Part shown: in pieces, positions 26,771 to 61,840 of the stretch
How positions within the stretch are numbered: position 1 is the first letter of the stretch
Layout of the letters: every line of letters begins with the position of its first letter
DNA from: a candidate division WWE3 bacterium
GTDB lineage: Bacteria; Patescibacteriota; 4484-211; GCA-002791395
DNA length: 64,000 nucleotides
Assembly (NCBI GenBank): GCA_013335095.1
Contig: JAAXWF010000001.1
Location: forward strand, 214,797-278,796
Reading direction: 5' to 3'
Position numbers and translations under genes: made by a program
The notes under the pieces: generated by a model
The model's database searches: none
The model's input: only the letters and a program-made list of their open reading frames with translations
What the model was told of the DNA's origin: nothing

Positions 26771-28274
26771 TTCCACTACGCACCTCAACCTTCACCTCAA
26801 GTCTATCTGAAATATGCGGCATAGATCGGAATGCATCGGGGATATATGGCCAGAGATTCATATCATAACCATCAACATGCTCCATCGACTTTAATATCGA
26901 CTCAGCTTGTGCAGGACGTATATTTAATAATTGGTCATGGATCTGATTTAGATTGAGATCAGGAACGACCATTGTTGCTAACTTTGCCTTTACGGTTATA
27001 GCCGAATTTACTTGACCTTCAATTTTTTCTAACGCAAGAGAATCTTCATTGTCTGTTACGACGAATCCATCTGGTATATTATCACGGGCGACTTTACTCA
27101 ACAGTTCTTTTACATCGCTTTCAGAAAATGCAACTACACTAGCAGAAATTTTTAACGTCAGAGCAAAATTTGAAGCCTCTGCTCCTACTGGATGATCATA
27201 GTCAGCAAATTTAGTATCAAATGAAATCATATCATCAGAAAATGTCTCACCTTCTTTTAATTCAGATTTTACTTTTGTCGGTGCATCAGCCTGTAATTTA
27301 CTCTTCAATTGCTTAAGAGCATTGGATTGATCGTCGGCCGATACAACAGTTACCTCACGAGTCAATCCTCCCGTTAATGCTTGTGGATTCGTCGCTCGAA
27401 CTGATCCAAGACCTTTTACCTTAAACTCGCCAACCGTAAAATCAGAATTAGCAGAAAGATTATATGTTTCACCAATATCAAGGGCTCCAATAGCAAGAGG
27501 CGAAGATTCACCCGGATCGAGGACCATTTGACCATCCTTCTCACTAATAGTCACCTCATCAACACGAACGGATTTATTTAGTACATATGACAAAGTCCCG
27601 CTTTTAAGAATAGTTCCAACAGGTAACTCAAGTGCAGAGTCACGGAAATTTTGGATAACAACCTGACCCGTCGCTTTTTCTCCAACCTGCTTTTTTCCAG
27701 AAGATGGGAATGTTTCACTTTGTTCAATTGTTGTTTCGACCTTTCGTCCTGGAATTTTCGAATTTGACTCATCAATTGTTTGAATATCTGGGTCAACCGT
27801 AACAATAGAACTTTTTTCAATAACTCGCTGATTAACGTAGAGCGTTACAACACCACGAGGTAGATAGTATAAGACAAATCCTGCCGTGGCTAATCCGGCT
27901 AGCAACAGAATAATCAAAAACGTAGCAATTAATCTTTTTGGAGTAAGGACTGATTGATGATGTTTATGTTTTTCATTCTTTGCAATCGGAGTATCAGCTT
28001 GTTTTAGCTCGTTCTTGTCATCGAGTACGCTCTCAGTAGATTCTTCGGAGGGCTCACTATTCTCCTGCACACTCATTGGTTGTCCACCTTCATGAACTAT
28101 ATGTATTTTTTTTCCTGTACGTTGGGCTACTTTCTCTAAAAGCGATAAATTTGAATGATACGACTTGAATACAGATCCCTCTGGCAAAAACAATTCGATA
28201 TCTTCACCAGAATACTGCTTCATCCCGTGAACTACTTCATATAATCTAATATGGTCATCTAATATTATTTTCAT
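26754..28274 (-). CDS. Bitopic membrane protein with a large extracytoplasmic domain (PilN/PilO-like partner?)
   Basis: 506 aa: a ~115-aa cytoplasmic N-region, one TM (LIATFLIILLLAGLATAGFVLYYL), then a ~370-aa outside domain. Translationally coupled to the actin-like ATPase upstream. Confidence 0.4.
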   Translation of the reverse strand: MKIILDDHIRLYEVVHGMKQYSGEDIELFLPEGSVFKSYHSNLSLLEKVAQRTGKKIHIVHEGGQPMSVQENSEPSEESTESVLDDKNELKQADTPIAKNEKHKHHQSVLTPKRLIATFLIILLLAGLATAGFVLYYLPRGVVTLYVNQRVIEKSSIVTVDPDIQTIDESNSKIPGRKVETTIEQSETFPSSGKKQVGEKATGQVVIQNFRDSALELPVGTILKSGTLSYVLNKSVRVDEVTISEKDGQMVLDPGESSPLAIGALDIGETYNLSANSDFTVGEFKVKGLGSVRATNPQALTGGLTREVTVVSADDQSNALKQLKSKLQADAPTKVKSELKEGETFSDDMISFDTKFADYDHPVGAEASNFALTLKISASVVAFSESDVKELLSKVARDNIPDGFVVTDNEDSLALEKIEGQVNSAITVKAKLATMVVPDLNLNQIHDQLLNIRPAQAESILKSMEHVDGYDMNLWPYIPDAFRSMPHISDRLEVKVEVRSGNDSQT

Positions 28275-28276
28275 AG

Positions 28277-29407
28277 TTATAATTCAACCCTGGTTAACGC
28301 TTCAATATTTGGTAACTTACCCGAGATTGTTTCTATCTTAGGGAAATTAACAAAATGTAAAAACTTAGTCCAAGGATACGCTGATAAACGCGATTTAATC
28401 TCACTTAGATGGCGCGATTCACCTGAAATAATAAGCCGCGGTGGGAGGTCATTTACTTTGAATTCTGAGAGCGCCGACGCGATGCCTTCTACCCAGATTT
28501 CGAGCGCAGTCTCTATCGAATGTTTTGTCATTCGTCCACGATCTTGGTCTAAATGTCCTTGGGCATATTCTAATTTCAAGTTCTCAGCATTATCATATGA
28601 GGTATTAAGATCTTGCTGTATTTGCCAGGTAATATCATTTCCTCCAATAAATAAGACTTCGTTTCCAACAACTTTCCCGCTCACAACAACAACGACCTCA
28701 GTCGAGTCGCCACCTACGTCTAAAAGAATAAAATCATTTCCGTCTTTTGACAAATCGACAGCGGCTTGCACCGATGTTTCAATAAGTGACACGATTTCAA
28801 GATTAAACTGATCAATAAGCGCATTGATCGTGTTTAGTTTAGTTTGGTCAATAAAATAATGTAGCACAGCTACCTCAATTTCGTTACCGGCTAGACCAAT
28901 GGGAGTCGAAACACGGGCCCCATCGACTTCAAAACCAGTAAAACTTGTTTCAACTCGAGTTAGTTCAGAACCACACTTTGCCTGAAGCTCTTGTAATGCT
29001 TTGTTCAATGTTTTTTCTTCTATTTTTTGGGCAATGACTTCAAACTCTTTCTCGGTTAATATCTCGGTCGGATGGCTCCGTTTGGTCCTGACTCGAAGGC
29101 CTCGAACATGAATCATCCCACCTGATAAACCTAATACAACCTGATTAGATTGCGAATCTGATTTTAGAGTTGCTTCATCTAATGCTAGCTTAAGGGAATC
29201 GGTTACGGCATCTAAATTTGTAATTTGCCCTGCATACATACTTTTTCGGCCCTGTATCTGGGATCCCATCCCAATAATCCTTGACTCGTGTTGTTCATCT
29301 GCAGGTTCAAATACAGCCACACGAATAGCAGAGCTACCTAAATCGATAGCGGTGTAGTATGGGGTCTTCTTTTGTTTAAAAATATTACCTAAAAGTTTTC
29401 CCTTCAT
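28277..29407 (-). CDS. Actin-like ATPase of the FtsA/PilM family
   Basis: YTAIDLGSSAIRVAVFEP (phosphate-1), ILLDVGGDSTEVVVV (phosphate-2) and a C-terminal adenosine motif. No ftsZ follows, so PilM-like is favoured. Confidence 0.6.
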   Translation of the reverse strand: MKGKLLGNIFKQKKTPYYTAIDLGSSAIRVAVFEPADEQHESRIIGMGSQIQGRKSMYAGQITNLDAVTDSLKLALDEATLKSDSQSNQVVLGLSGGMIHVRGLRVRTKRSHPTEILTEKEFEVIAQKIEEKTLNKALQELQAKCGSELTRVETSFTGFEVDGARVSTPIGLAGNEIEVAVLHYFIDQTKLNTINALIDQFNLEIVSLIETSVQAAVDLSKDGNDFILLDVGGDSTEVVVVVSGKVVGNEVLFIGGNDITWQIQQDLNTSYDNAENLKLEYAQGHLDQDRGRMTKHSIETALEIWVEGIASALSEFKVNDLPPRLIISGESRHLSEIKSRLSAYPWTKFLHFVNFPKIETISGKLPNIEALTRVEL

Positions 29408-29472
29408 ATTCCATTTACTGTACTGTTTTTATAATGAATTATCAACTTGACGTAAGCTTTTATAGATGAGAA

Positions 29473-29500
29473 AGCCCGGCACTTTCTCAAATGCCGGGCT
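29473..29500 (-). terminator. Intrinsic-terminator-like hairpin (AGCCCGGCA...UGCCGGGCU) with a weak U-tract on the minus strand
   Basis: 9-bp perfect stem seen directly. Lies between the GC-rich ORF and the pilM-like start. Confidence 0.3.
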
Positions 29501-29699
29501 CAAAATGAATCAACGTTTTCTGACTGGTACCTAGTCAACCGATAATTGATCGGTAACGATATTGACTAGGGTTATAACCATCAGTGATTATTGTGTCGCA
29601 CATCACCGTAGTGCGGGACTCAGTTCGTACTCAGAAGGTATTCGTTCGGGAATTTAATCCCACGCGACGTGCCTATCGCGCCTTCTGGATGCTTGCTAT

Positions 29700-30548
29700 T
29701 TACTCAAATGAGGTCGTCGATTCGAGTAAGTACGCGAGCACCGCCTCCCGAGTAATTCTACTCGGACGAAACCGTGCGATGACCGCACCCAGATGCTGGC
29801 TCCAGGCATCAACATCGGCTTGGGCTAGATCCCATCGCGACTCCATGTGGTTACGGAGTAGATACTGACCCTCCTGCGGCGCTAAAGCCCTAATTCGAAC
29901 CGCAATCGGACCGAGATGCCGCCGGATCAGCTCAGGTATGATCTCCAATTCCGGATACGAAGCCCCTTGATTAAAGAAGCTTGCAAATGCCGGATTGGGT
30001 CCGACCTCTGCAAACCACTCGAGCCACACTTCGATCAGATCAATGGATAGATCAGACATGTGCTTCCAGCTTGGCCGCAGTTGATCAAGCCCCATCAAAG
30101 ACAACGCCTTGTAAAAAGCCGACCAGACCAATATAGCCCGAACCTCATCTTCATGTCCTTCGCGGACGAGATGAAAATCATGTGTGTGCCGGGGACAATC
30201 GTCCCGAGATACAACATATCGAGTTTCGACTTCGATATGAGGTTCCAAAACTTTCTTCCACTCGAAGGCACAGATGACATCGGTATCATCCCGACGTACT
30301 TCGTTTCGAATCAACCAACGGCGAAAACCACCGTTGACATCATCGCTCTCCAGAACCATTCGGTTTTGAGGGATAACAATCCCTTCCACCGTTACAATCG
30401 CCCCTCGGCTTTCTGATGTTATGCCGATGACCGTCCCCACGGGAAAATGGCGAATCGAATCACCCGCCACATTTCGAGGAAAGCCTCGGTGGCTATACAT
30501 TTTCCCATCTGATCCAGTGATTATCCCAATACCAATGACCTCAGACAT
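29700..30548 (-). CDS. Hypothetical protein encoded in a GC-rich island
   Basis: 282-aa ORF with strikingly higher GC than its flanks (visible in runs such as gcgacgtgcctatcgcgccttctgg). No family recognised. Confidence 0.5.
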   Translation of the reverse strand: MSEVIGIGIITGSDGKMYSHRGFPRNVAGDSIRHFPVGTVIGITSESRGAIVTVEGIVIPQNRMVLESDDVNGGFRRWLIRNEVRRDDTDVICAFEWKKVLEPHIEVETRYVVSRDDCPRHTHDFHLVREGHEDEVRAILVWSAFYKALSLMGLDQLRPSWKHMSDLSIDLIEVWLEWFAEVGPNPAFASFFNQGASYPELEIIPELIRRHLGPIAVRIRALAPQEGQYLLRNHMESRWDLAQADVDAWSQHLGAVIARFRPSRITREAVLAYLLESTTSFE

Positions 30549-30727
30549 GGTCTGCTCCTTCGTTGCAGCAAAGCTGCGCTATAAATCGTACCCGGCAATT
30601 CGCCAGGCACCCATGTCGGTATTATCCGACAAGCCGTATTTAGGCCAAAAGATCAGTATTCTTAATACTAAGCTATTGTCCTAAACAAGTGTTATTTATT
30701 ATAGGATGTAAACACAAGAAATACAAC

Positions 30728-32539
30728 TTATGATTGAACCCGCACGTACACTCTCCGAACACCTTTGCCAACGGACTCTTGTTTGTATAATTCAAGCTTC
30801 CCAATTTGATCAGTATTTGAAACATGAGGCCCACCACAAAACTCTTTACTGAACGCAGACTCTAAGTCATCCCCAATATAGTACACCTTTACTTGATCAC
30901 CGTATTTTTCACCAAAAAAATGAAGAGCTCCCGATTCTTCAGCCTTGTCCTTAGGTAAGATAACATAATTAACAGGTATCTTATCAGTAATCTTTTGGTT
31001 AATAAGAAGCTCTATCTGCTTAATTTGTTCATCGGATAATTTATCGGAATAATTAAAATCAAATCGTAAGCGTTCACCAGTAATATTACTTCCACGTTGA
31101 GAAACATCCGTACCAAGAACTTCACGAAGTGCCCAGTGTAACAAATGAGTAGCTGTATGATATTTCACAACTTCATCACTTTGATCGGCCAAGCCTCCTT
31201 TAAACTTTTGCTCTGCACCTGCACGAGAGCCAGCCTGATGCTGTGACTGAGAACTGTGGTATTGATCTTCGATCTTATGACGATCAAAATTGATCCCTTT
31301 CTCTTCTAGTACTTCGATGAACATCTCAATGGGAAACCCAACAGACTGATATACCTCAAACGCCATTTCGGTTATATCATCACCACGCTCAAGTCGTTTT
31401 TCAACCTCGCGTAATCCTCGATCTAATGTTTTAGAAAACTTCTGCTCTTCTTCGCCAAATATCGAAGTAATCTGTGGCTGTCTTTCAATTAGTTCCGGAT
31501 ACATCCACTGTAACGTCTCTGCTACCGTACTAACTAAACGAACCGAAATATTCTCATACACACCCAACTTTCGACCAAAGCGGACAATTCTTCGCAAAAA
31601 TCGTCGTAACACATATCCTTGATCTTTATTTGAAGGAACCACACCATCCATCGCAAGAAAAGTCGCAGTACGAATATGATCAGCAAGGATCCGCATTGCT
31701 TTTGTGTCTTCGGACCCCTTTCCATATAACCTACCCGACAATTCCTCGACCTTATGAATAATTGGTTCAAACATATCGGTCTGATAAATATCGGATTTAT
31801 CATCAGACACTAACGTGATACGTTCTAAACCGCCACCAAAATCAACGTTTTTTTGAGGCAAGGTTTCCCAACCACCATCATGTGTTCGACGATACTGCAT
31901 AAACACTGAATTACCTATTTCTAAAAACTCAGAGTCATTCTCCGCTGGAGATTTCCCGAGTCCATTGCCATCTTTTCCAATATAATAAAAGACTTCGCTA
32001 TCAGGACCTCCAAGCTCTCCCGGAGCATCCCCGCGTTGCCACCAATTATCTTTTCGTCCACATGCAAAAATTCGTTCTCCAACCTTCGCGTCAACTCCAT
32101 ACTTAGCAAAAATATCTTGAAGAATAGCGATAGATTCATCATCACGAGGCGCATAATTATCACCTTCGAATACAGTCGCATATAAACGATTTACATCTAA
32201 ACCAATCTCTTCGACAAAAAACTGGTATACCCAAGGGAGTTGGTCTTTTTTGAAATAATCTCCCAGACTCCAATTTCCAATCATATGGAAACATGTTGTG
32301 TGGTTATAATCTCCGATCTCCTCTAGATCTTCAAATCTCAAAGCCCGCTGAACGTTGACTAAGCGTGATCCAGCAGGATGTTTTTCTCCACTTAAATAAG
32401 GAACGAGCGGAAACATTCCAGAGTTAACAAACAGTAGTGTCGAGTCACCTTCGGGCACCAAGGACATATTAGGGATCAACTTATGTTGTCTATTCTGATA
32501 AAAACTAATGTACTTCGATAGAATATCTTGACTACGCAT
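30728..32539 (-). CDS. alaS: Alanyl-tRNA synthetase, compact form lacking the C-Ala domain
   Basis: The N-terminus (SKYISFYQNRQHKLIPNMSLVPEGDSTLLFVNSGM) matches class II AlaRS. Editing-domain HTATHLLHWAL and CGGPHVSNTDQIG are present. 603 aa, with no C-terminal oligomerisation domain. Confidence 0.85.
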   Translation of the reverse strand: MRSQDILSKYISFYQNRQHKLIPNMSLVPEGDSTLLFVNSGMFPLVPYLSGEKHPAGSRLVNVQRALRFEDLEEIGDYNHTTCFHMIGNWSLGDYFKKDQLPWVYQFFVEEIGLDVNRLYATVFEGDNYAPRDDESIAILQDIFAKYGVDAKVGERIFACGRKDNWWQRGDAPGELGGPDSEVFYYIGKDGNGLGKSPAENDSEFLEIGNSVFMQYRRTHDGGWETLPQKNVDFGGGLERITLVSDDKSDIYQTDMFEPIIHKVEELSGRLYGKGSEDTKAMRILADHIRTATFLAMDGVVPSNKDQGYVLRRFLRRIVRFGRKLGVYENISVRLVSTVAETLQWMYPELIERQPQITSIFGEEEQKFSKTLDRGLREVEKRLERGDDITEMAFEVYQSVGFPIEMFIEVLEEKGINFDRHKIEDQYHSSQSQHQAGSRAGAEQKFKGGLADQSDEVVKYHTATHLLHWALREVLGTDVSQRGSNITGERLRFDFNYSDKLSDEQIKQIELLINQKITDKIPVNYVILPKDKAEESGALHFFGEKYGDQVKVYYIGDDLESAFSKEFCGGPHVSNTDQIGKLELYKQESVGKGVRRVYVRVQS

Positions 32540-32596: not shown

Positions 32597-33640
32597 TTAC
32601 TGGATTAATTCTTTCTCAACAAAGTCTAGTGAAGGAGCAAGGTTCTCCGAAATGGTTTCCCAGTTTACCTGCATTGGTTTAATAGTACTCACATCAGGTA
32701 CATTTGCTGGACGGTCTACACCGGGTAATAACGGCATCTGCACCGATTTAGTCGCCGCTAATGCAGCCTCAGTTTTCTCGGAAATCAAGTAATCGAATAA
32801 TTTATGTGCTGCATCGACATTCTTAGCACCTTTAATCATCATCAGTGTGTTTGGTATTACCAAAGTTCCCATGCCGCCCTCACCTTGATCTGGATAGACT
32901 ACTTTGACTGGCTTACCATCAGATAAGGCTTCATTTGCATCATCAGTATCGGTAAAGCCAACCACCATCTCCCCATTTGAAACCTTCTCCATTGTTTGAC
33001 CGTTGCTCTGTGCAATGTTTAAACCATTTGCTTTTAGGTCTGATAAATATTGCTCGGCGTCAGCTTGCCCAAGCACTGTATATAAAGCAGCAACGTGTGA
33101 ACCAGTAGAACCCGCCCGAGGATCAGCGATCGTTACTTTATCTTTAAAACGAGCATTCGTTAGATCGTATAATGAATCTGGATATTGAGCTTCTGTAAGT
33201 AAGTCAGTGTTAACCAACACTACGCGAGCTCGGGCAGCAAATCCAGTCCAAAATCCATTTGCATCTTTATAAACGCTTGCTAATTTATCAAAATTAGGTG
33301 TTTTGTATGATTCAAGAACGCCTTCTTTCTTCAATTGGATGGTACGTGAGACTTCGTTATTCCAAAATATATCGGCCTGAGGATTGTCCTTCTCGGCAAT
33401 TAGCCTATTAACTAAACCTACAGACTTTGATGCCTCAGTATCATAAACCGCATTAACTTTGATCCCAGTTTCATCTTCAAAATCCTTTAAAATCGGCTCG
33501 GAGTAATCCTGATCGTGGGCGACATATATAGTTACTGCATCAGTTGAAGGTTTGATACTACGGAAAAAGAATATTCCGACAATAGACACGACTAAGACGA
33601 TGAGTAAAATTAATAATTCTCCAGAACCGCGTCTATTCAT
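32597..33640 (-). CDS. ABC-transporter substrate-binding protein (family 1 SBP, iron/thiamine/polyamine type), orphan
   Basis: N-terminal anchor, then VTIYVAHDQDYSEPILKDFEDETGIKVNAVYD typical of FbpA/PotD-like SBPs. No permease or ATPase genes adjacent. Confidence 0.55.
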   Translation of the reverse strand: MNRRGSGELLILLIVLVVSIVGIFFFRSIKPSTDAVTIYVAHDQDYSEPILKDFEDETGIKVNAVYDTEASKSVGLVNRLIAEKDNPQADIFWNNEVSRTIQLKKEGVLESYKTPNFDKLASVYKDANGFWTGFAARARVVLVNTDLLTEAQYPDSLYDLTNARFKDKVTIADPRAGSTGSHVAALYTVLGQADAEQYLSDLKANGLNIAQSNGQTMEKVSNGEMVVGFTDTDDANEALSDGKPVKVVYPDQGEGGMGTLVIPNTLMMIKGAKNVDAAHKLFDYLISEKTEAALAATKSVQMPLLPGVDRPANVPDVSTIKPMQVNWETISENLAPSLDFVEKELIQ

Positions 33641-54663: not shown

Positions 54664-54984
54664 GGGGATGCTCAGCATCGACAAAAGCATTTTTTACAAC
54701 TAGCAAGCCGAGTTTTGATTATCAACTCGCTAAACAAATAATCGCAAACAATAAATGGCGTTAATAATAGTTACGCTCCAGTCGCCTACGCTATTGCGTA
54801 AAGCCCTGGCATCGGCCTTTTCTTACTACTCCTGACAAGAGAGTTAACCGGTGTAATATTAGTCAGGAATCTTTATCATTGCACTTTTATCTTTATCCCG
54901 ATGGCTAAAATCGGGAAGAAAGCTTGTAAACTAGCTGTACACAAATCTTATTGGACGAGGGTGCAAATCCCTCCATCTCCACCA
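54664..54984 (+). ncRNA. ssrA: tmRNA (ssrA)
   Basis: The 5' GGGGAUGCUCAGCAUCGAC pairs with the 3' ...GGAC-GAGGG-UGCAAAU-CCCUC-CAUCUCC-A-CCA, which is collinear with E. coli tmRNA ends, including the G3-U70 Ala identity pair. It lies immediately downstream of smpB. An internal short ORF ends at TAA 54799-54801. Confidence 0.8.
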
Positions 54985-56725: not shown

Positions 56726-58531
56726 ATGAATACCACACATATTCGCAATTTTTGTATTATCGCTCATATTGATCATGGAAAATCGACCTTGGCCGACCGC
56801 CTGCTTCAACGCACGGGCACTGTTTCTGACAGGGAGATGCAGGATCAATTCTTGGATAAGCTCGATTTAGAGAGGGAGAGGGGCATCACCATCAAGTTAC
56901 AAGCAGTGCGGATGGAGTGGAAAGACGCGATTAACGAGCAATACGTTTTAAACCTCATCGATACCCCAGGACATATCGATTTTTCGTATGAAGTAAACCG
57001 CGCCCTGGCTGCATGTGAAGGGGCACTGCTATTAGTCGATGCCAGCCAAGGAATACAAGCCCAAACGTTGGCGAACTACTTTAAAGCCGTTGAGGCAAAA
57101 CTTAAAATAATTCCCGTTGTAAACAAGATCGATTTACCTTCGGCAAGGCCAGAAGACGTTGCACTAGAGATTATTGAAACATTTGGTTTTGATCATGAGG
57201 ACATTATCTTTGCGAGCGGTAAAACGGGTGCTGGTGTCGATGAATTGCTCGAAGCAATAATTAAAAAGATACCCGCTCCCCTAGAATCGCAAAATAATAT
57301 ACCAAAAGCGTTAGTATTTGATAGTTATTATGATAGCCATCGCGGAGTGGTAGCAATGATTCGCGTAATTGAAGGAGAGTTGCATCATCAACCGATGTAT
57401 CTGGTTAATTCCCAACAAGATTTCAATCCAATAGAGATTGGTTATATGACGTCATCTCAGGTAAAAACAAAACAAATATTAACAGGAGAAGTTGGATATA
57501 TTGCGACCGGGTTAAAAGACATTGAGCGCGTACGTGTTGGTGCAACAATTACCCATGAAGAAAATTGGAATTCGGTGACACCTTTACCTGGATATCAAGA
57601 GCCAAAGCCGATGGTTTTTGCGAATCTGTTTCCAGTCGATGCCGATAAATTTAAGGAGCTACGGGAGTCGGTGCTTAAATATAAACTGACCGATGCTGCG
57701 TTCGTATATGAACCAATTCATTCCCAGGTATTAGGAGCTGGCTTTCGGTGTGGGTTTTTAGGGCTCTTACACTTAGAGGTTGTTCGGGAACGTATTGAGC
57801 AGGAATACAATATCGAAACGCAAGTAACGTCTCCTAATGTGTTGTATGAAATTGAGTTTCGCGATGGCAGAAAAGAAGCGCTCCAATCACCCGAAGATAT
57901 GCCCGATCCGAGTACGATCAGTAATATTTTCGAACCATGGTGTAAGGTAAAGATTTATACCCAAAAAGATTACATTGGTGATTTGATGAAGATATCCGAC
58001 CAACATCGTGGAGTGTTTATCGATATGAGCTACTTAGCCAGCGATAAAAGCGGATCTCGCGTTACCCTTGAGTATGATATGCCTCTTGCCGAAGTGATAA
58101 CGAACTTCTTTGATCAGGTTAAATCGGTTTCGGCTGGTTATGCATCGCTTGATTATGAGCTCACTGACTATCGTTTAGTCGATTTAGTACGCCTCGACTT
58201 GCTTTTAAACGGTGAAAGCCATGAAGCATTGGCACGATTGGTTGTCCGATCCCAGGCTCATGAGATCGGAAATAAATTGGTCAGTACACTCAAAGAGACG
58301 TTACCGCGACAACAGTTTGCCGTACCGATTCAGGCAGCCATAGGAGGAAAGATTATTGCCCGCGAAACATTATCGGCGGTCCGTAAAGATGTGACAGGAT
58401 ATTTATATGGTGGAGACCGAACCCGTAAAGATAAACTACTTAAAAAACAAGCCGAAGGTAAAAAACGTATGCAAGCTATGGGATCGGTTACGATTCCTCA
58501 CGATGTGTATAAACGTATAGTATCTCTTTAA
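56726..58531 (+). CDS. lepA: Elongation factor 4 (LepA)
   Basis: IIAHIDHGKSTLADRLL, DTPGH, NKID and the LepA-specific C-terminal domain. Confidence 0.95.
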   Translation: MNTTHIRNFCIIAHIDHGKSTLADRLLQRTGTVSDREMQDQFLDKLDLERERGITIKLQAVRMEWKDAINEQYVLNLIDTPGHIDFSYEVNRALAACEGALLLVDASQGIQAQTLANYFKAVEAKLKIIPVVNKIDLPSARPEDVALEIIETFGFDHEDIIFASGKTGAGVDELLEAIIKKIPAPLESQNNIPKALVFDSYYDSHRGVVAMIRVIEGELHHQPMYLVNSQQDFNPIEIGYMTSSQVKTKQILTGEVGYIATGLKDIERVRVGATITHEENWNSVTPLPGYQEPKPMVFANLFPVDADKFKELRESVLKYKLTDAAFVYEPIHSQVLGAGFRCGFLGLLHLEVVRERIEQEYNIETQVTSPNVLYEIEFRDGRKEALQSPEDMPDPSTISNIFEPWCKVKIYTQKDYIGDLMKISDQHRGVFIDMSYLASDKSGSRVTLEYDMPLAEVITNFFDQVKSVSAGYASLDYELTDYRLVDLVRLDLLLNGESHEALARLVVRSQAHEIGNKLVSTLKETLPRQQFAVPIQAAIGGKIIARETLSAVRKDVTGYLYGGDRTRKDKLLKKQAEGKKRMQAMGSVTIPHDVYKRIVSL

Positions 58532-58535
58532 AAAA

Positions 58536-58572
58536 TCCCGAAGCGATAAGTCGCCCCGGGATCCTTTCAGTT
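58536..58572. terminator. Nested-palindrome hairpin after lepA (UCCCG..GCGA-UAAG-UCGC..CGGGA), probably a bidirectional terminator
   Basis: Read directly. Lies between the convergent lepA and the GC-rich ORF. Confidence 0.4.
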
Positions 58573-58583
58573 TGCGAAATTTA

Positions 58584-59087
58584 CTATTCCTCTGGCGGAG
58601 AGGGTAGCATGTCGAGATCGGACCGCATCAGTCCGAGTACGATGTCTCGCTCCATCTGGCTGGCCCAACCGACCATGATAAGGAAGGCCAACCGCAGTCG
58701 GTAACGATCCAACGACTCAAGCGGATACAGATCAAGCAAGTGCTCGATCCGGTCGATCGGCCACTCTTCCCTGGAGGCAACCCCCTGAATTAGAAGTTGC
58801 ACCAGCAGGTACGAGACACCCAGTTGATCAGCGATCAACTGGCGGCGAAGACGACCGTGCGTAACCTCGAAGATATTGCGTACCCAAAGCGAGGCAGTGC
58901 GCCGTTCAGCATACTCAGGCGTACCCATCAGGGCCGCCCAACGCCGCACGACCTCGGTCATGCGGGATTCAAACTCCCGCTCCTCCTCGGTTTTCTCCGA
59001 AGCATTGATTTCGTCAATCTCTTGGTCGGTCAGACCGAGGTCTCGAAGTGCCTGCCGATCAGGGTCTTCCGCTGGTACCTGGGACAT
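58584..59087 (-). CDS. Hypothetical protein (GC-rich island)
   Basis: High-GC ORF. The start is uncertain (MSQVPAEDPDRQALRDLGL... is preferred). No family recognised. Confidence 0.4.
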   Translation of the reverse strand: MSQVPAEDPDRQALRDLGLTDQEIDEINASEKTEEEREFESRMTEVVRRWAALMGTPEYAERRTASLWVRNIFEVTHGRLRRQLIADQLGVSYLLVQLLIQGVASREEWPIDRIEHLLDLYPLESLDRYRLRLAFLIMVGWASQMERDIVLGLMRSDLDMLPSPPEE

Positions 59088-59200
59088 ACAGCCCCTCCTT
59101 TGCATAGATTCCACCAAACTTAGCCCTTATATTTTACCACACCACTATAGGATGGTATAATTTAAATACAGTGTCTAAGGGGACTATCAAGGAGGATGCA

Positions 59201-59638
59201 ATGCATCCAAAGGACCTGCTCGGGTTGCTGGCAATGATATCGGTGGTGGTCGTAGTTTCGTGGGGCCGTTTTTCTAGCATCCCAACCGAAACCAACGTTG
59301 CCACAATCGATTGTCCGTCCGCAATGGAGCTCCCTGTGGGGAGCATGTGTGAGTCGAAAGGCGTACAGGCGGGCTCTGGCAGCCTAATCCAACTCGGTGG
59401 CTGGAAGTACGCCCAAGCCACATTCTTCGGCGGTGCCGCGCTTCGTCAAGCCGACAACATCCAGATAAAGGATACGGCTGGCAAAGTTACCGGGTCCGAC
59501 CGGCTGCTGAATGGCGTCTATACCATTCAGATCGGCAAGGGTGAGGCCCGTTTGGGTATCGACGATCCGATCACAACGGATCCCAAAGAGGTGAGCGTAC
59601 AGCTTACCCTCTTCCGCCCAACCGCCCCGGCCCCGTGA
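59201..59638 (+). CDS. Small secreted or anchored hypothetical protein (GC-rich island)
   Basis: AGGAGG lies 5 nt before ATG 59201. The N-terminal hydrophobic segment is LLGLLAMISVVVVVSW. A strong terminator follows. Confidence 0.45.
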   Translation: MHPKDLLGLLAMISVVVVVSWGRFSSIPTETNVATIDCPSAMELPVGSMCESKGVQAGSGSLIQLGGWKYAQATFFGGAALRQADNIQIKDTAGKVTGSDRLLNGVYTIQIGKGEARLGIDDPITTDPKEVSVQLTLFRPTAPAP

Positions 59639-59644
59639 TAATGT

Positions 59645-59682
59645 CCCCTGGCGCGCACCACGCGCGTCAGGGGATTTTTTTT
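59645..59682 (+). terminator. Rho-independent terminator (CCCCUGGCGCGC-ACCA-CGCGCGUCAGGGG, then U8)
   Basis: Read directly, immediately after the stop at 59638. Confidence 0.65.
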
Positions 59683-59739
59683 CACCTCATATGATATGAT
59701 ACGACTATCGGCCGAATAGAGTTGCAAGGAGGTCACTTC

Positions 59740-60213
59740 ATGACCGAACCCCGGATACTTCCGTTTGAAGTAATTTTCTGCCCCCAATGTGGGCAAGAAA
59801 CCCCCAAAGTGGGGAATAAGTGCATGATGTGCGGGGCCGGGTTAGTAAAGTTCAAGTCAACCCCACCAACGCCTGAACTGGAATGGCTGACGGTCGCACC
59901 CGATGCCGATACCACCCTAATCTCATTGGAGTTATCCAAAAAGATTAGCCTAACCACGCCACCGATTCCAATCGAGCTAATCATCCAGGCCCTAGACCAG
60001 TTGGCAAAAATCAATCCCCAACACGTCCAGGTCCTCATTCGATGGTATGGACTGGATGGAAAACCACCCCGAACCTTGACCGAAATCGCCGCATCAGTTG
60101 GAAAAAAAATCGGCTATGCCAGCCGACTTCGGACACAAGGGACACGCAAAATTAGGCACCCAGAATATGGGCTGCAGCAGGCGATCAACGAGCTAGAAGG
60201 AGAAAAAGAATAA
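59740..60213 (+). CDS. Zinc-ribbon protein with a C-terminal sigma-70 region-4-like HTH (GC-rich island)
   Basis: AGGAGG lies 7 nt before the ATG. The Zn ribbon reads CPQCG...CMMCG. The C-terminal LTEIAASVGKKIGYASRLRTQGTRKIRH resembles sigma70 region 4.2. Confidence 0.45.
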   Translation: MTEPRILPFEVIFCPQCGQETPKVGNKCMMCGAGLVKFKSTPPTPELEWLTVAPDADTTLISLELSKKISLTTPPIPIELIIQALDQLAKINPQHVQVLIRWYGLDGKPPRTLTEIAASVGKKIGYASRLRTQGTRKIRHPEYGLQQAINELEGEKE

Positions 60214-60220
60214 CAATAAA

Positions 60221-60256
60221 AGCCACGTATTCACTATCCGAATACGTGGCTTATTT
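60221..60256. terminator. Perfect 12-bp hairpin (AGCCACGUAUUC...GAAUACGUGGCU) followed by a U-rich tract. Bidirectional terminator between convergent genes
   Basis: Read directly. Confidence 0.5.
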
Positions 60257-60696: not shown

Positions 60697-60796
60697 TACA
60701 GCGCTCCTTTTTACTACAATGGACAACCGTACAAAAGGCAGTATAACATATATAAAACCCGCAAAGAATGGATCACCGATACGATACAATACAGTG

Positions 60797-61840
60797 ATGA
60801 AAATACTTGGAATCGAAACGAGCTGCGATGAAACATCAGTAGCAATTGTCGAGGATGGAACGAAGATCATTAGTCATGTACTTGCGACAAGTTTAGAAAT
60901 CCAACAACAATATGGTGGGATCGTGCCTGAAGTAGCCTCACGTAAACAGGCCGAATATATGATCCCAGTATTACACGAAGCAATAAAAAAAAGAGGCCTC
61001 ACCATTGATGAGATTGATGCAATTGGAGTAACGGTTGGACCAGGATTAATGGGATCATTAATGGTTGGACTAGAGACCGCTAAAACACTCAGCTATATTT
61101 GGCAAAAACCACTCATACCGGTTAATCATTTAATTGGGCATATCTACTCGGGATGGTTGGATTCAAACGCAACAATACCACCTCAATTCCCATTAATGGC
61201 TGTGGTTGCATCGGGTGGGCATACCGATGTCGTATTAATGCACGATCATGGGCAAATTGAACTATTAGGAGCGACACGAGATGATGCGATTGGCGAAGCG
61301 TTTGATAAAGTGGCCAGGCTTCTAGATCTACCGTATCCAGGCGGTCCACAAATTGAAAAATTAGCTCAACAGGGTGATCCGCGTGCGTTCGACTTCCCTC
61401 GCCCATTACTCCATAGTCAAGACATCGAATTTTCGTATAGTGGATTAAAGACAGCGGTGTTATATGAGACTAAAAAGATAGATACGTTAACCGATCAAAT
61501 AAGAGCTGATCTAGCTGCATCTTTCCAACAAGCCGCCTTTGAAACGTTAGTTATTAAGACTATGCAGGCAGCAAAAAGGTTTGATATTACCTCACTTCTA
61601 CTTACCGGTGGTGTTGCTGCCAATCAATATCTTAAAAGTATGTTCATAAGCTATGCTCAAAAGGAAATACCACACGTACAACTGTATACTCCACCACTCT
61701 CCTTAGCGACCGATAATGCGACCTACATAGCGGCAGCGGCTTACTTTACTCAAAAAGCATCGTTAGATCCGAAAATTAACGAACAACAGCTGGCTGAATT
61801 AGAACCGAATCCATCATTACTGGTAACTGACCAACTATAG
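60797..61840 (+). CDS. tsaD: tRNA N6-adenosine threonylcarbamoyltransferase TsaD (Kae1/YgjD)
   Basis: MKILGIETSCDETSVAIV..., HxxGH-type metal site (VNHLIGHIY) and ASKHB fold. Confidence 0.9.
   Translation: MKILGIETSCDETSVAIVEDGTKIISHVLATSLEIQQQYGGIVPEVASRKQAEYMIPVLHEAIKKRGLTIDEIDAIGVTVGPGLMGSLMVGLETAKTLSYIWQKPLIPVNHLIGHIYSGWLDSNATIPPQFPLMAVVASGGHTDVVLMHDHGQIELLGATRDDAIGEAFDKVARLLDLPYPGGPQIEKLAQQGDPRAFDFPRPLLHSQDIEFSYSGLKTAVLYETKKIDTLTDQIRADLAASFQQAAFETLVIKTMQAAKRFDITSLLLTGGVAANQYLKSMFISYAQKEIPHVQLYTPPLSLATDNATYIAAAAYFTQKASLDPKINEQQLAELEPNPSLLVTDQL

Follow-up and report, generated by a model that had tools for sequence, protein, structure and literature searches.

We analysed a 64-kb window (64,000 nucleotides, nt) on a contig of a candidate division WWE3 bacterium (assembly GCA_013335095.1, contig JAAXWF010000001.1, positions 214,797–278,796), a member of the candidate phyla radiation (CPR). 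Positions below are those of the window, unless a comparison locus, written with the prefix L, is named. The interval between alaS, encoding alanyl-tRNA synthetase (AlaRS), and a pilM/ftsA-like gene (hereafter pilM) contains a single open reading frame (ORF) of 282 codons, ORF282, on the minus strand. Read in that direction, alaS is followed by a promoter-like site, a structured leader, ORF282, a branched structure that we call the Y element, a nested palindrome, an intrinsic-terminator-like hairpin and the promoter-like site of pilM (Table 1). The original prediction, made from the letters of the window, had described a GC-rich single-gene island, possibly acquired horizontally from a high-GC host, with a long untranslated tail carrying a hairpin and a nested palindrome. 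Both structures of the tail are real, and our analyses point to a probable acquisition of ORF282 by a site at which genes turn over.

Table 1. Features of the alaS–pilM interval, in the order in which they are read from alaS to pilM (positions in the window)
Feature	Position	Strand	Basis or composition
Promoter-like site, -35 TTGTAT (30726-30721), 17-nt spacer, -10 TATAAT (30703-30698)	30698..30726	-	read from sequence
Structured 5' leader, four hairpins; outer stem UCUUUUG pairs with the Shine–Dalgarno region	30549..30665	-	RNA fold
GC-rich DNA (~0.50-0.55)	29570..30600	.	100-nt GC scan
ORF282, 282-aa orphan gene, HGA91_01295, candidate division WWE3	29700..30548	-	GC 0.512, GC3 0.509
Y element, 56-nt three-way junction; P1 CAGAAGG/CCUUCUG encloses hairpins P2 and P3	29632..29687	-	comparison with L018
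Nested palindrome, 41 nt; outer 9-bp arms CCTAGTCAA/TTGACTAGG, inner hairpin predicted	29530..29570	.	repeat scan and fold
Intrinsic-terminator-like hairpin, 12-13 bp stem (29500-29473), then UUUCUCAUCU	29463..29500	-	inverted-repeat scan and fold
Promoter-like site of the pilM/ftsA-like gene, TTGATA-17-TACAGT	29417..29445	-	consensus scan

RESULTS

ORF282 is a likely coding sequence without detectable relatives

ORF282 is the longest stop-free stretch within the GC-rich segment. When that segment was shuffled 5000 times, the longest stop-free run averaged 105 codons and never exceeded 273, short of the 282 observed. A Shine–Dalgarno (SD) sequence, GAAGGAG (30561–30555), lies 6 nt before its ATG, and the GC contents of the first, second and third codon positions (GC1/GC2/GC3) are 0.61/0.42/0.51, in the coding-type order GC1 > GC3 > GC2. 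We therefore treated ORF282 as protein-coding; judged by these sequence signals, it is a real protein-coding orphan gene.

The initial impression that the product matches nothing recognisable was borne out in very large protein sets. A word-indexed search of 5.8 billion proteins retrieved only the identical entry, the hypothetical protein HGA91_01295, which sits on a 536-kb contig of a candidate division WWE3 bacterium (a metagenome-assembled genome), and an exhaustive phmmer search of 1.84 billion cluster representatives retrieved the protein itself alone. The whole protein has no family match in Pfam, PADLOC, PHROGs or NCBIfam at E ≤ 10, with 0 families among the defence-system models of PADLOC-DB v2, and its two halves have no Pfam match at E ≤ 1. 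At the nucleotide level, no match was obtained by tblastn of ORF282 against phage and plasmid collections, by scans of IMG/VR viral and JGI metagenome contigs with the back-translated protein, or by blastn of the complete 1.3-kb interval against the phage and plasmid sets. A tblastn search of the window and all 25 comparison loci found no paralogue, and an exact-protein look-up for genomic context returned no record.

In the PDB, phmmer weakly matched residues 127–213 to designed DARPins (double-DARPin E 0.0075; single-DARPin E 0.08–1.1). We discounted these matches, because DARPins are over-represented in the PDB and the single-DARPin E-values are poor, and we dropped an ankyrin-repeat identity, because the Ank family of Pfam is silent and the TPLH motif is missing from the aligned stretch. 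The product is acidic (isoelectric point 5.7) and has no hydrophobic or transmembrane-like segment. Single-sequence AlphaFold2 models of the full-length protein and of its C-terminal domain reached a predicted local distance difference test (pLDDT) score of 40 and 46 and are unusable for fold comparison; the secondary structure predicted in these low-confidence models is β-rich over residues ~1–115 and all-helical over residues ~118–276. These features suggest a soluble two-part protein with a β-rich N-terminus and a helical C-terminus.

ORF282 departs from its host in composition

The GC content in 300-nt windows rises from 0.39–0.43 to 0.49–0.55 between ~29550 and ~30600, and then falls to 0.37–0.44. 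The GC content of ORF282 lies 3.2 standard deviations (SDev) above that of 849-nt windows over the 64 kb (0.411, SDev 0.032) and, against the 30 host genes of the window, the deviation is larger still, both for GC (0.410 ± 0.021, z 4.8) and for GC3 (0.323 ± 0.041, z 4.6). In tetranucleotide distance, the 1-kb windows over the island rank 8–10 of 630 (z 3.5–3.8), and every rank above them belongs to a second island at 58.5–60.2 kb. The windowed GC and tetranucleotide deviations that the prediction had proposed to measure are thus significant, and the GC richness of the ORF relative to its host is confirmed. The GC-normalised dinucleotide bias of the island is mild (z ~1.6), so its deviation is mostly a GC effect. 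The deviation extends to the protein, in which Arg/(Arg+Lys) is 0.84, compared with a mean of 0.49 and a maximum of 0.815 among the 30 host proteins. GC, GC3, tetranucleotides and the Arg/Lys balance therefore all deviate from the host, as in a genomic islet or cargo of horizontal gene transfer (HGT).

The flanks had also been taken as GC-rich. This applies to ~130 nt downstream of the stop codon and ~50 nt upstream of the start codon, but not to the outer flanks, which are host-like overall (0.426 for 29409–29699; 0.413 for 30549–30727). The GC-rich DNA is probably the sum of a foreign segment (~29688–30615) and the conserved Y element, which is itself GC-rich.

Previous work indicated that bacterial species-specific orphans usually match the GC content of their host (PMC11293555). 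A GC3 value 19 points above the host is therefore atypical for such an orphan and favours an external origin, making a native or de novo origin unlikely.

The alaS–pilM interval differs among relatives

Relatives were gathered by scanning a genome collection for alaS and by contig look-ups for the closest pilM/ftsA-like homologues, which yielded nine contigs, seven of them spanning alaS–pilM. The gene order fusA–tuf–S10–alaS–pilM–(506 amino acids, aa)–ruvX–(750 aa) is conserved. In five contigs alaS and pilM are adjacent, separated by 170 nt with no gene (L001) or by 24, 38, 25 and 10 nt (L020, L021, L023 and L024). The content differs in the other two: L004 carries ~6 kb of surface or cell-wall-type genes on the opposite strand, and L018 carries one co-directional ORF of 159 aa, ORF159. 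None of the seven contigs has ORF282 at this position, which answers the question about sister genomes raised at the outset. Because ORF282 is found in none of the seven intervals and their contents differ, the alaS–pilM interval is, as far as gene content can tell, a gene-turnover site.

The L004 insert (L004:9837–15711; alaS 64% identical) consists of six opposite-strand ORFs of host-like composition. By sequence reading only, several resemble surface or cell-wall proteins: there are Thr/Pro-rich linkers, a possible polysaccharide-deacetylase-like protein, a sortase-like protein and a membrane protein like a glycosyltransferase. Larger insertions are thus accepted by the slot as well. From the turnover of the slot one might guess, weakly, at an accessory function of ORF282 in conflict or in host interaction.

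Of the relatives sampled, L018 is the closest, with aa identities of 75% in pilM and 70% in the C-terminus of alaS, and it is the sister of the window organism in the pilM tree and in the alaS tree. Its ORF159 is also an orphan, for which homology searches returned no relatives, and it is also GC-rich (GC 0.531 and GC3 0.569 in a contig of GC 0.446). Neither blastp, nor tblastx in all frames, nor a global DNA alignment (z -0.5) detected similarity between ORF282 and ORF159. The non-coding flanks are, on the other hand, homologous between the two genomes, comprising the promoter site, the leader, the Y element, the terminator hairpin and the pilM promoter. Homology is lost between the region of leader hairpins H1 and H2 and the base of the Y element, with a sharp break at the base of the Y stem.

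The distance between the two genomes sets the scale for these observations. Their coding DNA is 68–80% identical at the nucleotide level (80% for tuf/S10) and their housekeeping proteins differ by 22–27%, while the four-fold degenerate sites of alaS and pilM are saturated (0.32–0.34 identical, compared with 0.28 by chance). Given this saturation, a gene resident since the split should have drifted to the GC3 of its host. ORF282 and ORF159 stand 19–23 points above their hosts in GC3, and for ORF282 the 19-point excess in the face of saturated synonymous sites argues that its acquisition is younger than the split between the window organism and L018.

The two ORFs might nevertheless be orthologues of a single, anciently acquired and fast-evolving gene, with no replacement at all. 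They occupy a common slot in the same orientation and within the same flanking frame, they are alike in GC1/GC2/GC3 (0.61/0.41/0.57 in ORF159) and in Arg/(Arg+Lys) (0.82 in ORF159), and a gene evolving several-fold faster than housekeeping proteins that already differ by 22–27% could lose detectable similarity. However, a resident gene should show a host-like GC3 of ~0.32–0.37 rather than 0.51–0.57; the two ORFs are 123 codons apart in length and share no similarity in any frame; and homology stops abruptly at the base of the Y stem. We therefore regard ancient orthology as unlikely.

An assembly or binning artefact, with foreign DNA wrongly joined to the WWE3 contig, would also produce an abrupt shift in composition in a metagenome-assembled genome. 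The 1-kb segment is, however, internal to the 536-kb contig and lies between two syntenic genes. Furthermore, independent assemblies, L018 from another sample and L019 from a third run (SRR21121619 and SRR21121628), show the same architecture with homologous junctions on both sides, and we consider an artefact extremely improbable.

A conserved element, predicted to fold as a three-way junction, follows both ORFs

The Y element starts 12 nt past the stop codon of ORF282 (at 29687) and 14 nt past that of ORF159 (at L018:4079). The two copies are 87% identical over 79 nt (L018:4079–4157) and 93% identical over the 56-nt core, with 36 consecutive invariant nucleotides, and the conserved block extends past the core to ~29610. 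An identical three-way junction fold is predicted for both. All 17 modelled pairs are kept, and P2 contains one compensatory change (U–G to G–C) and one A–U to G–U change; this covariation comes from two distinct sequences, a number at which the shuffle control is uninformative. The wobble (G–U) pairs are valid only on the ORF-sense strand, which fits a function as RNA.

A small conserved peptide was considered for this region and dropped, as the invariant run of 36 nt lacks third-position variation and a 1-nt indel lies within the conserved block; together, these argue against coding constraint on the Y element. A tRNA-like reading was also dropped, since ARAGORN reports no tRNA and the sizes of the arms and loops are unsuited. 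Because the four-fold degenerate sites are saturated, neutral DNA should be unalignable between the two genomes, which makes the conservation of the Y element a stronger argument than its fold. Its invariance implies, on the sequence comparison, either that the RNA or DNA itself is under selection or that the element was transferred recently. The Y element may act as RNA, as an mRNA 3'-end stabiliser or as a processed small RNA. As to whether it is simply a lineage-specific structured RNA motif that is new and under strong constraint, we see the chances as about even.

Searches for further examples recovered only the two copies. The covariance models of Rfam 15 gave no match at E ≤ 1 in 28000–32000 and, at E ≤ 10, four weak matches only in 29400–30740 (15.8–18.2 bits, E 1.5–8.1), far below gathering scores; nothing relevant to the Y element or the leader turned up with Rfam in L018. 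The covariance model built for the Y element (R1) returned only the two known copies from the window and 15 loci. An 11.7-bit match of R1 in L002 was dropped, as it lies inside a membrane-protein ORF on the opposite strand.

The Y element, with or without the leader, could instead be a recombination or recognition site through which unrelated foreign ORFs would enter, time and again, at exactly this point, making the interval a dedicated cassette-capture platform or a member of a mobile cassette family. Two unrelated GC-rich orphans end 12–14 nt before the same element, the element (87–93% at the nucleotide level) is more conserved than the DNA of any neighbouring gene (68–80%), and it is GC-rich like the cargo. 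By analogy with long attC sites, its branched structure would be compatible with a folded single-strand recombination site. On the other hand, there is no second copy in the window or the 25 loci, viral contigs contain no exact copy of the 21–25-nt cores of the element, and metagenome contigs contain none of its 25-nt core. The ORF282 unit shares no end motifs with a second GC-rich unit in L018 (L018:1056–1484) or with the island at 58.5–60.2 kb, which weakens the idea of a mobile cassette. In addition, GTTRRRY/RYYYAAC core sites were not seen by eye in either tail, the neighbours are syntenic core genes and not recombinases, and the G–U pairs would hold on the sense strand only. We thus judge a cassette platform quite unlikely.

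Promoter-like, leader and terminator-like sequences surround the ORF

The promoter-like site upstream of ORF282 begins 2 nt past the alaS stop codon, and its equivalent in L018 (TTGACA-18-CATAAT) is in the same place after alaS; the promoter and its AT-rich surroundings align between the two with z 3.6 against shuffles. The -35 hexamer in the window is weak (3/6 consensus), hence the site was not listed by the consensus scan, and a consensus match is in any case no proof of function. The leader folds at -45.7 kcal/mol (z -4.6), and none of 200 shuffles was equally stable. Its outer stem would occlude the SD sequence. The L018 leader also forms several hairpins with the SD region partly paired, at a z-value of only -1.5, which is not significant. 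Conservation within the leader is concentrated in the H1 block (30647–30618; 22/30 identical, z 7.6), whereas the GC-rich part down to the ATG aligns only marginally (z 2.2); the SD sequence and ATG are at an equivalent position in both genomes.

On the other side of ORF282, the 292-nt tail folds at z -3.9. The 12-nt arms of the terminator-like hairpin are 92% complementary, and L018 keeps the hairpin with a compensatory C–G to U–A change and a better U-tract; in the window the U-run is interrupted, and a simple terminator scan therefore missed it. The promoter region of pilM is conserved in L018, with 16 consecutive identical nucleotides covering the -35 hexamer. The nested palindrome is confined to the window copy, being missing from the aligned L018 tail and unique within the window. 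A promoter-like TTGACT-18-GATTAT overlaps it on the plus strand and would drive antisense transcription through the Y element into the end of ORF282.

The untranslated tail does not simply belong to the foreign DNA. Its terminator hairpin and pilM promoter are of native type and are present in L018, and its GC-rich part is the strongly conserved structured element rather than neutral cargo. By their sequences, the promoter, leader and terminator presumably work as such.

With structure at both ends, the GC-rich kilobase could also be read as one large structured non-coding RNA with conserved ends and a variable middle, in which the ORF arose by coincidence. In AT-rich genomes, GC-rich islands often prove to be RNA genes, the ends are conserved where the middle is not, and no homologue of the protein was found. 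Nevertheless, shuffled sequence did not yield an ORF of this length, an SD sequence and ATG are present in both genomes, and both ORFs show the order GC1 > GC3 > GC2. The middles, moreover, share no sequence, and Rfam holds no relevant match. This reading appears very improbable to us.

Other variable intervals

The second GC-rich island of the window (58500–60250; GC 0.53–0.55, compared with 0.41) has the top tetranucleotide deviation in the window. It lies between lepA (56726–58531) and tsaD (60719–61840), ~3.5 kb from a transfer-messenger RNA (tmRNA) gene (54664–54984; Rfam 88.7 bits), which the ARAGORN run did not report. The island contains three GC-rich ORFs with no significant family match, namely a 177-aa ORF on the minus strand (GC3 0.65), a 155-aa ORF on the plus strand (GC3 0.66) with an N-terminal hydrophobic segment, and a 163-aa ORF on the plus strand with a zinc ribbon and a sigma-70 region-4-like helix-turn-helix (Pfam E 3e-4; PHROG sigma factor E 3e-5). 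A 198-aa ORF on the minus strand adjoins them. No sequence is shared between this island and the one at ORF282.

The interval between S10 and alaS is also variable. In the window it holds a solute-binding protein gene of host GC (32597–33640; SBP_bac_6, E 9e-27), and in L018 the GC-rich unit at 1056–1484 encodes a 142-aa orphan that has a promoter-like site and a terminator hairpin of its own. S10 adjoins alaS in L001 and L004. L021:1423–2055 encodes a protein of 210 aa, whose resemblance to the prepilin N-terminal methylation motif is weak and below threshold (E 0.027), and L023:251–1655 includes a 144-aa gene just upstream of alaS with an MNT/HepT-like pair nearby; no S10 was seen on that contig. 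AlaRS itself is short, with 603 aa in the window (30728–32539) and 606–640 aa in L002, L004, L018, L021 and L023. The Escherichia coli enzyme has ~875 aa, and the short AlaRS would imply the loss of a C-terminal part.

DISCUSSION

Our comparison supports the horizontal-acquisition interpretation with which this locus was first described. We consider it probable that ORF282 came from a donor of clearly higher GC content after the split between the window organism and L018, and that it entered a turnover slot between core genes that is free of mobile-element genes. The earlier suggestion of a high-GC host goes further than the composition requires: the excess in GC3 supports acquisition, but at 51% GC the gene needs only a donor clearly above 41%.

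The direction and timing of the transfer, and recombination as its mechanism, are what we infer from this pattern. The common ancestor of the window organism and L018 probably already had a transcription-unit frame, as the promoter part of this frame and its terminator and pilM-promoter part are host-like and alignable; the frame is absent from the outgroups. The slot would be a self-contained transcription unit, composed of promoter, leader, ORF, a 3' untranslated region (UTR) bearing the Y element and an intrinsic terminator, after which the pilM promoter follows. Since the split, DNA from richer-GC donors would have taken the place of the coding segment, whose limits lie roughly at leader hairpin 2 and at the base of the Y element, in one lineage at least and probably in both.

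The most likely route is the uptake of foreign DNA and its recombination through the conserved flanks, with no integrase, tRNA or flanking repeat involved. The locus does not look like a classical integrase-mediated island. The neighbours of ORF282, to which the check for recombinases was confined, are core genes only, with no integrase among them; there is no tRNA gene within 20 kb of the island, the nearest being at 6.6 and 50.6 kb; and no target-site duplications or terminal repeats were evident, the direct and inverted matches in the flanks being short and at chance level. Many of the transfer hotspots described previously carry no mobile elements; their content is exchanged by recombination at the core genes on either side, and they are especially common among transformable bacteria (PMC5635113). 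Saccharibacteria, which belong to the CPR, are naturally competent (PMC10633639), and patescibacterial genomes contain many islands and individually transferred genes (PMC12455944).

Several points weigh against this interpretation. The flanking frame is known in two distinct copies only, that of the window and that of L018, which is the same as L019, so the ancestral presence of the frame, the boundaries of the replacement and the RNA covariation all hang on one pair. The relatives are distant (pilM 40–75% aa identity), so the timing is coarse. The fold of the Y element is not significantly more stable than shuffles in either copy (z -1.8 and -1.4). Finally, neither a donor nor a homologue of ORF282 was found in the protein, phage, plasmid, viral and metagenome searches, and the transfer is thus deduced from composition and phylogenetic distribution alone.

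Among known systems, the locus resembles the hotspots without mobile elements (Oliveira, Touchon, Cury and Rocha 2017, PMC5635113) in that the interval is bounded by core genes and varies in content, being empty, occupied by one orphan gene, by another orphan or by a 6-kb set. It also shares with them an atypical cargo without an integrase, tRNA or flanking repeat, here within a radiation in which competence has been shown (PMC10633639). Those hotspots were, however, defined in species pan-genomes, whereas the present genomes are distant and saturated at synonymous sites, and the unit exchanged here is bounded by the promoter and leader and by a structured 3' element rather than by core genes.

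Phage morons offer a second parallel. Hendrix and colleagues reportedly described them as autonomous promoter–gene–terminator units of deviant composition between two genes. ORF282 is likewise a single gene of deviant GC content with its own promoter-like site and terminator hairpin, between genes that are adjacent in relatives; the moron-type promoter hexamers and the hairpin are present in the window and conserved in L018, as consensus and structure matches only. The differences are that ORF282 lies on a cellular chromosome with housekeeping flanks and without a PHROGs, phage or IMG/VR match, and that the promoter and terminator are common to L018 where the gene is not. This last difference indicates that they belong to the slot and not to the incoming gene.

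As in integron cassettes with attC sites, unrelated orphan ORFs are each trailed by a conserved, structured imperfect palindrome. In contrast to integron cassettes, ORF282 forms a single unit and not an array, it has its own promoter and leader, its Y element was found at one locus only, and neither attC cores (by eye) nor an adjacent intI/attI platform was found for the unit. The position of the Y element directly past the stop codon, on the sense strand and ahead of an intrinsic terminator, also recalls 3'-UTR small RNAs and mRNA 3' stabilisers. It differs from these in having no Rfam match and in that the ORF upstream of it is not conserved. Small RNAs of 3' UTRs usually travel with their parent gene.

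These parallels raise the more far-reaching idea that the alaS–pilM interval is a dedicated expression-and-capture slot, in which the promoter and leader on one side and the Y element, as RNA or folded DNA, on the other would serve as fixed handles for repeated, near-codon-precise swaps of unrelated foreign ORFs. We hold this to be improbable on present evidence; if true, it would amount to integron-like cassette logic without a recognisable integrase in a CPR bacterium.

In itself, the acquisition of ORF282 as originally flagged is an ordinary event, that of a small orphan of foreign composition in a variable interval of a streamlined genome, and as ORF282 has no relatives, it adds nothing yet to functional knowledge. 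It does provide a clean, well-delimited case of gene turnover without mobile-element genes in the CPR, where the routes of gene gain are poorly documented. The unusual parts are the conserved Y element and the exact exchange of ORFs inside a stable promoter and leader frame. More genomes carrying the same frame around other ORFs would suggest a reusable expression or capture site; otherwise, the Y element would stand as a candidate new RNA motif.

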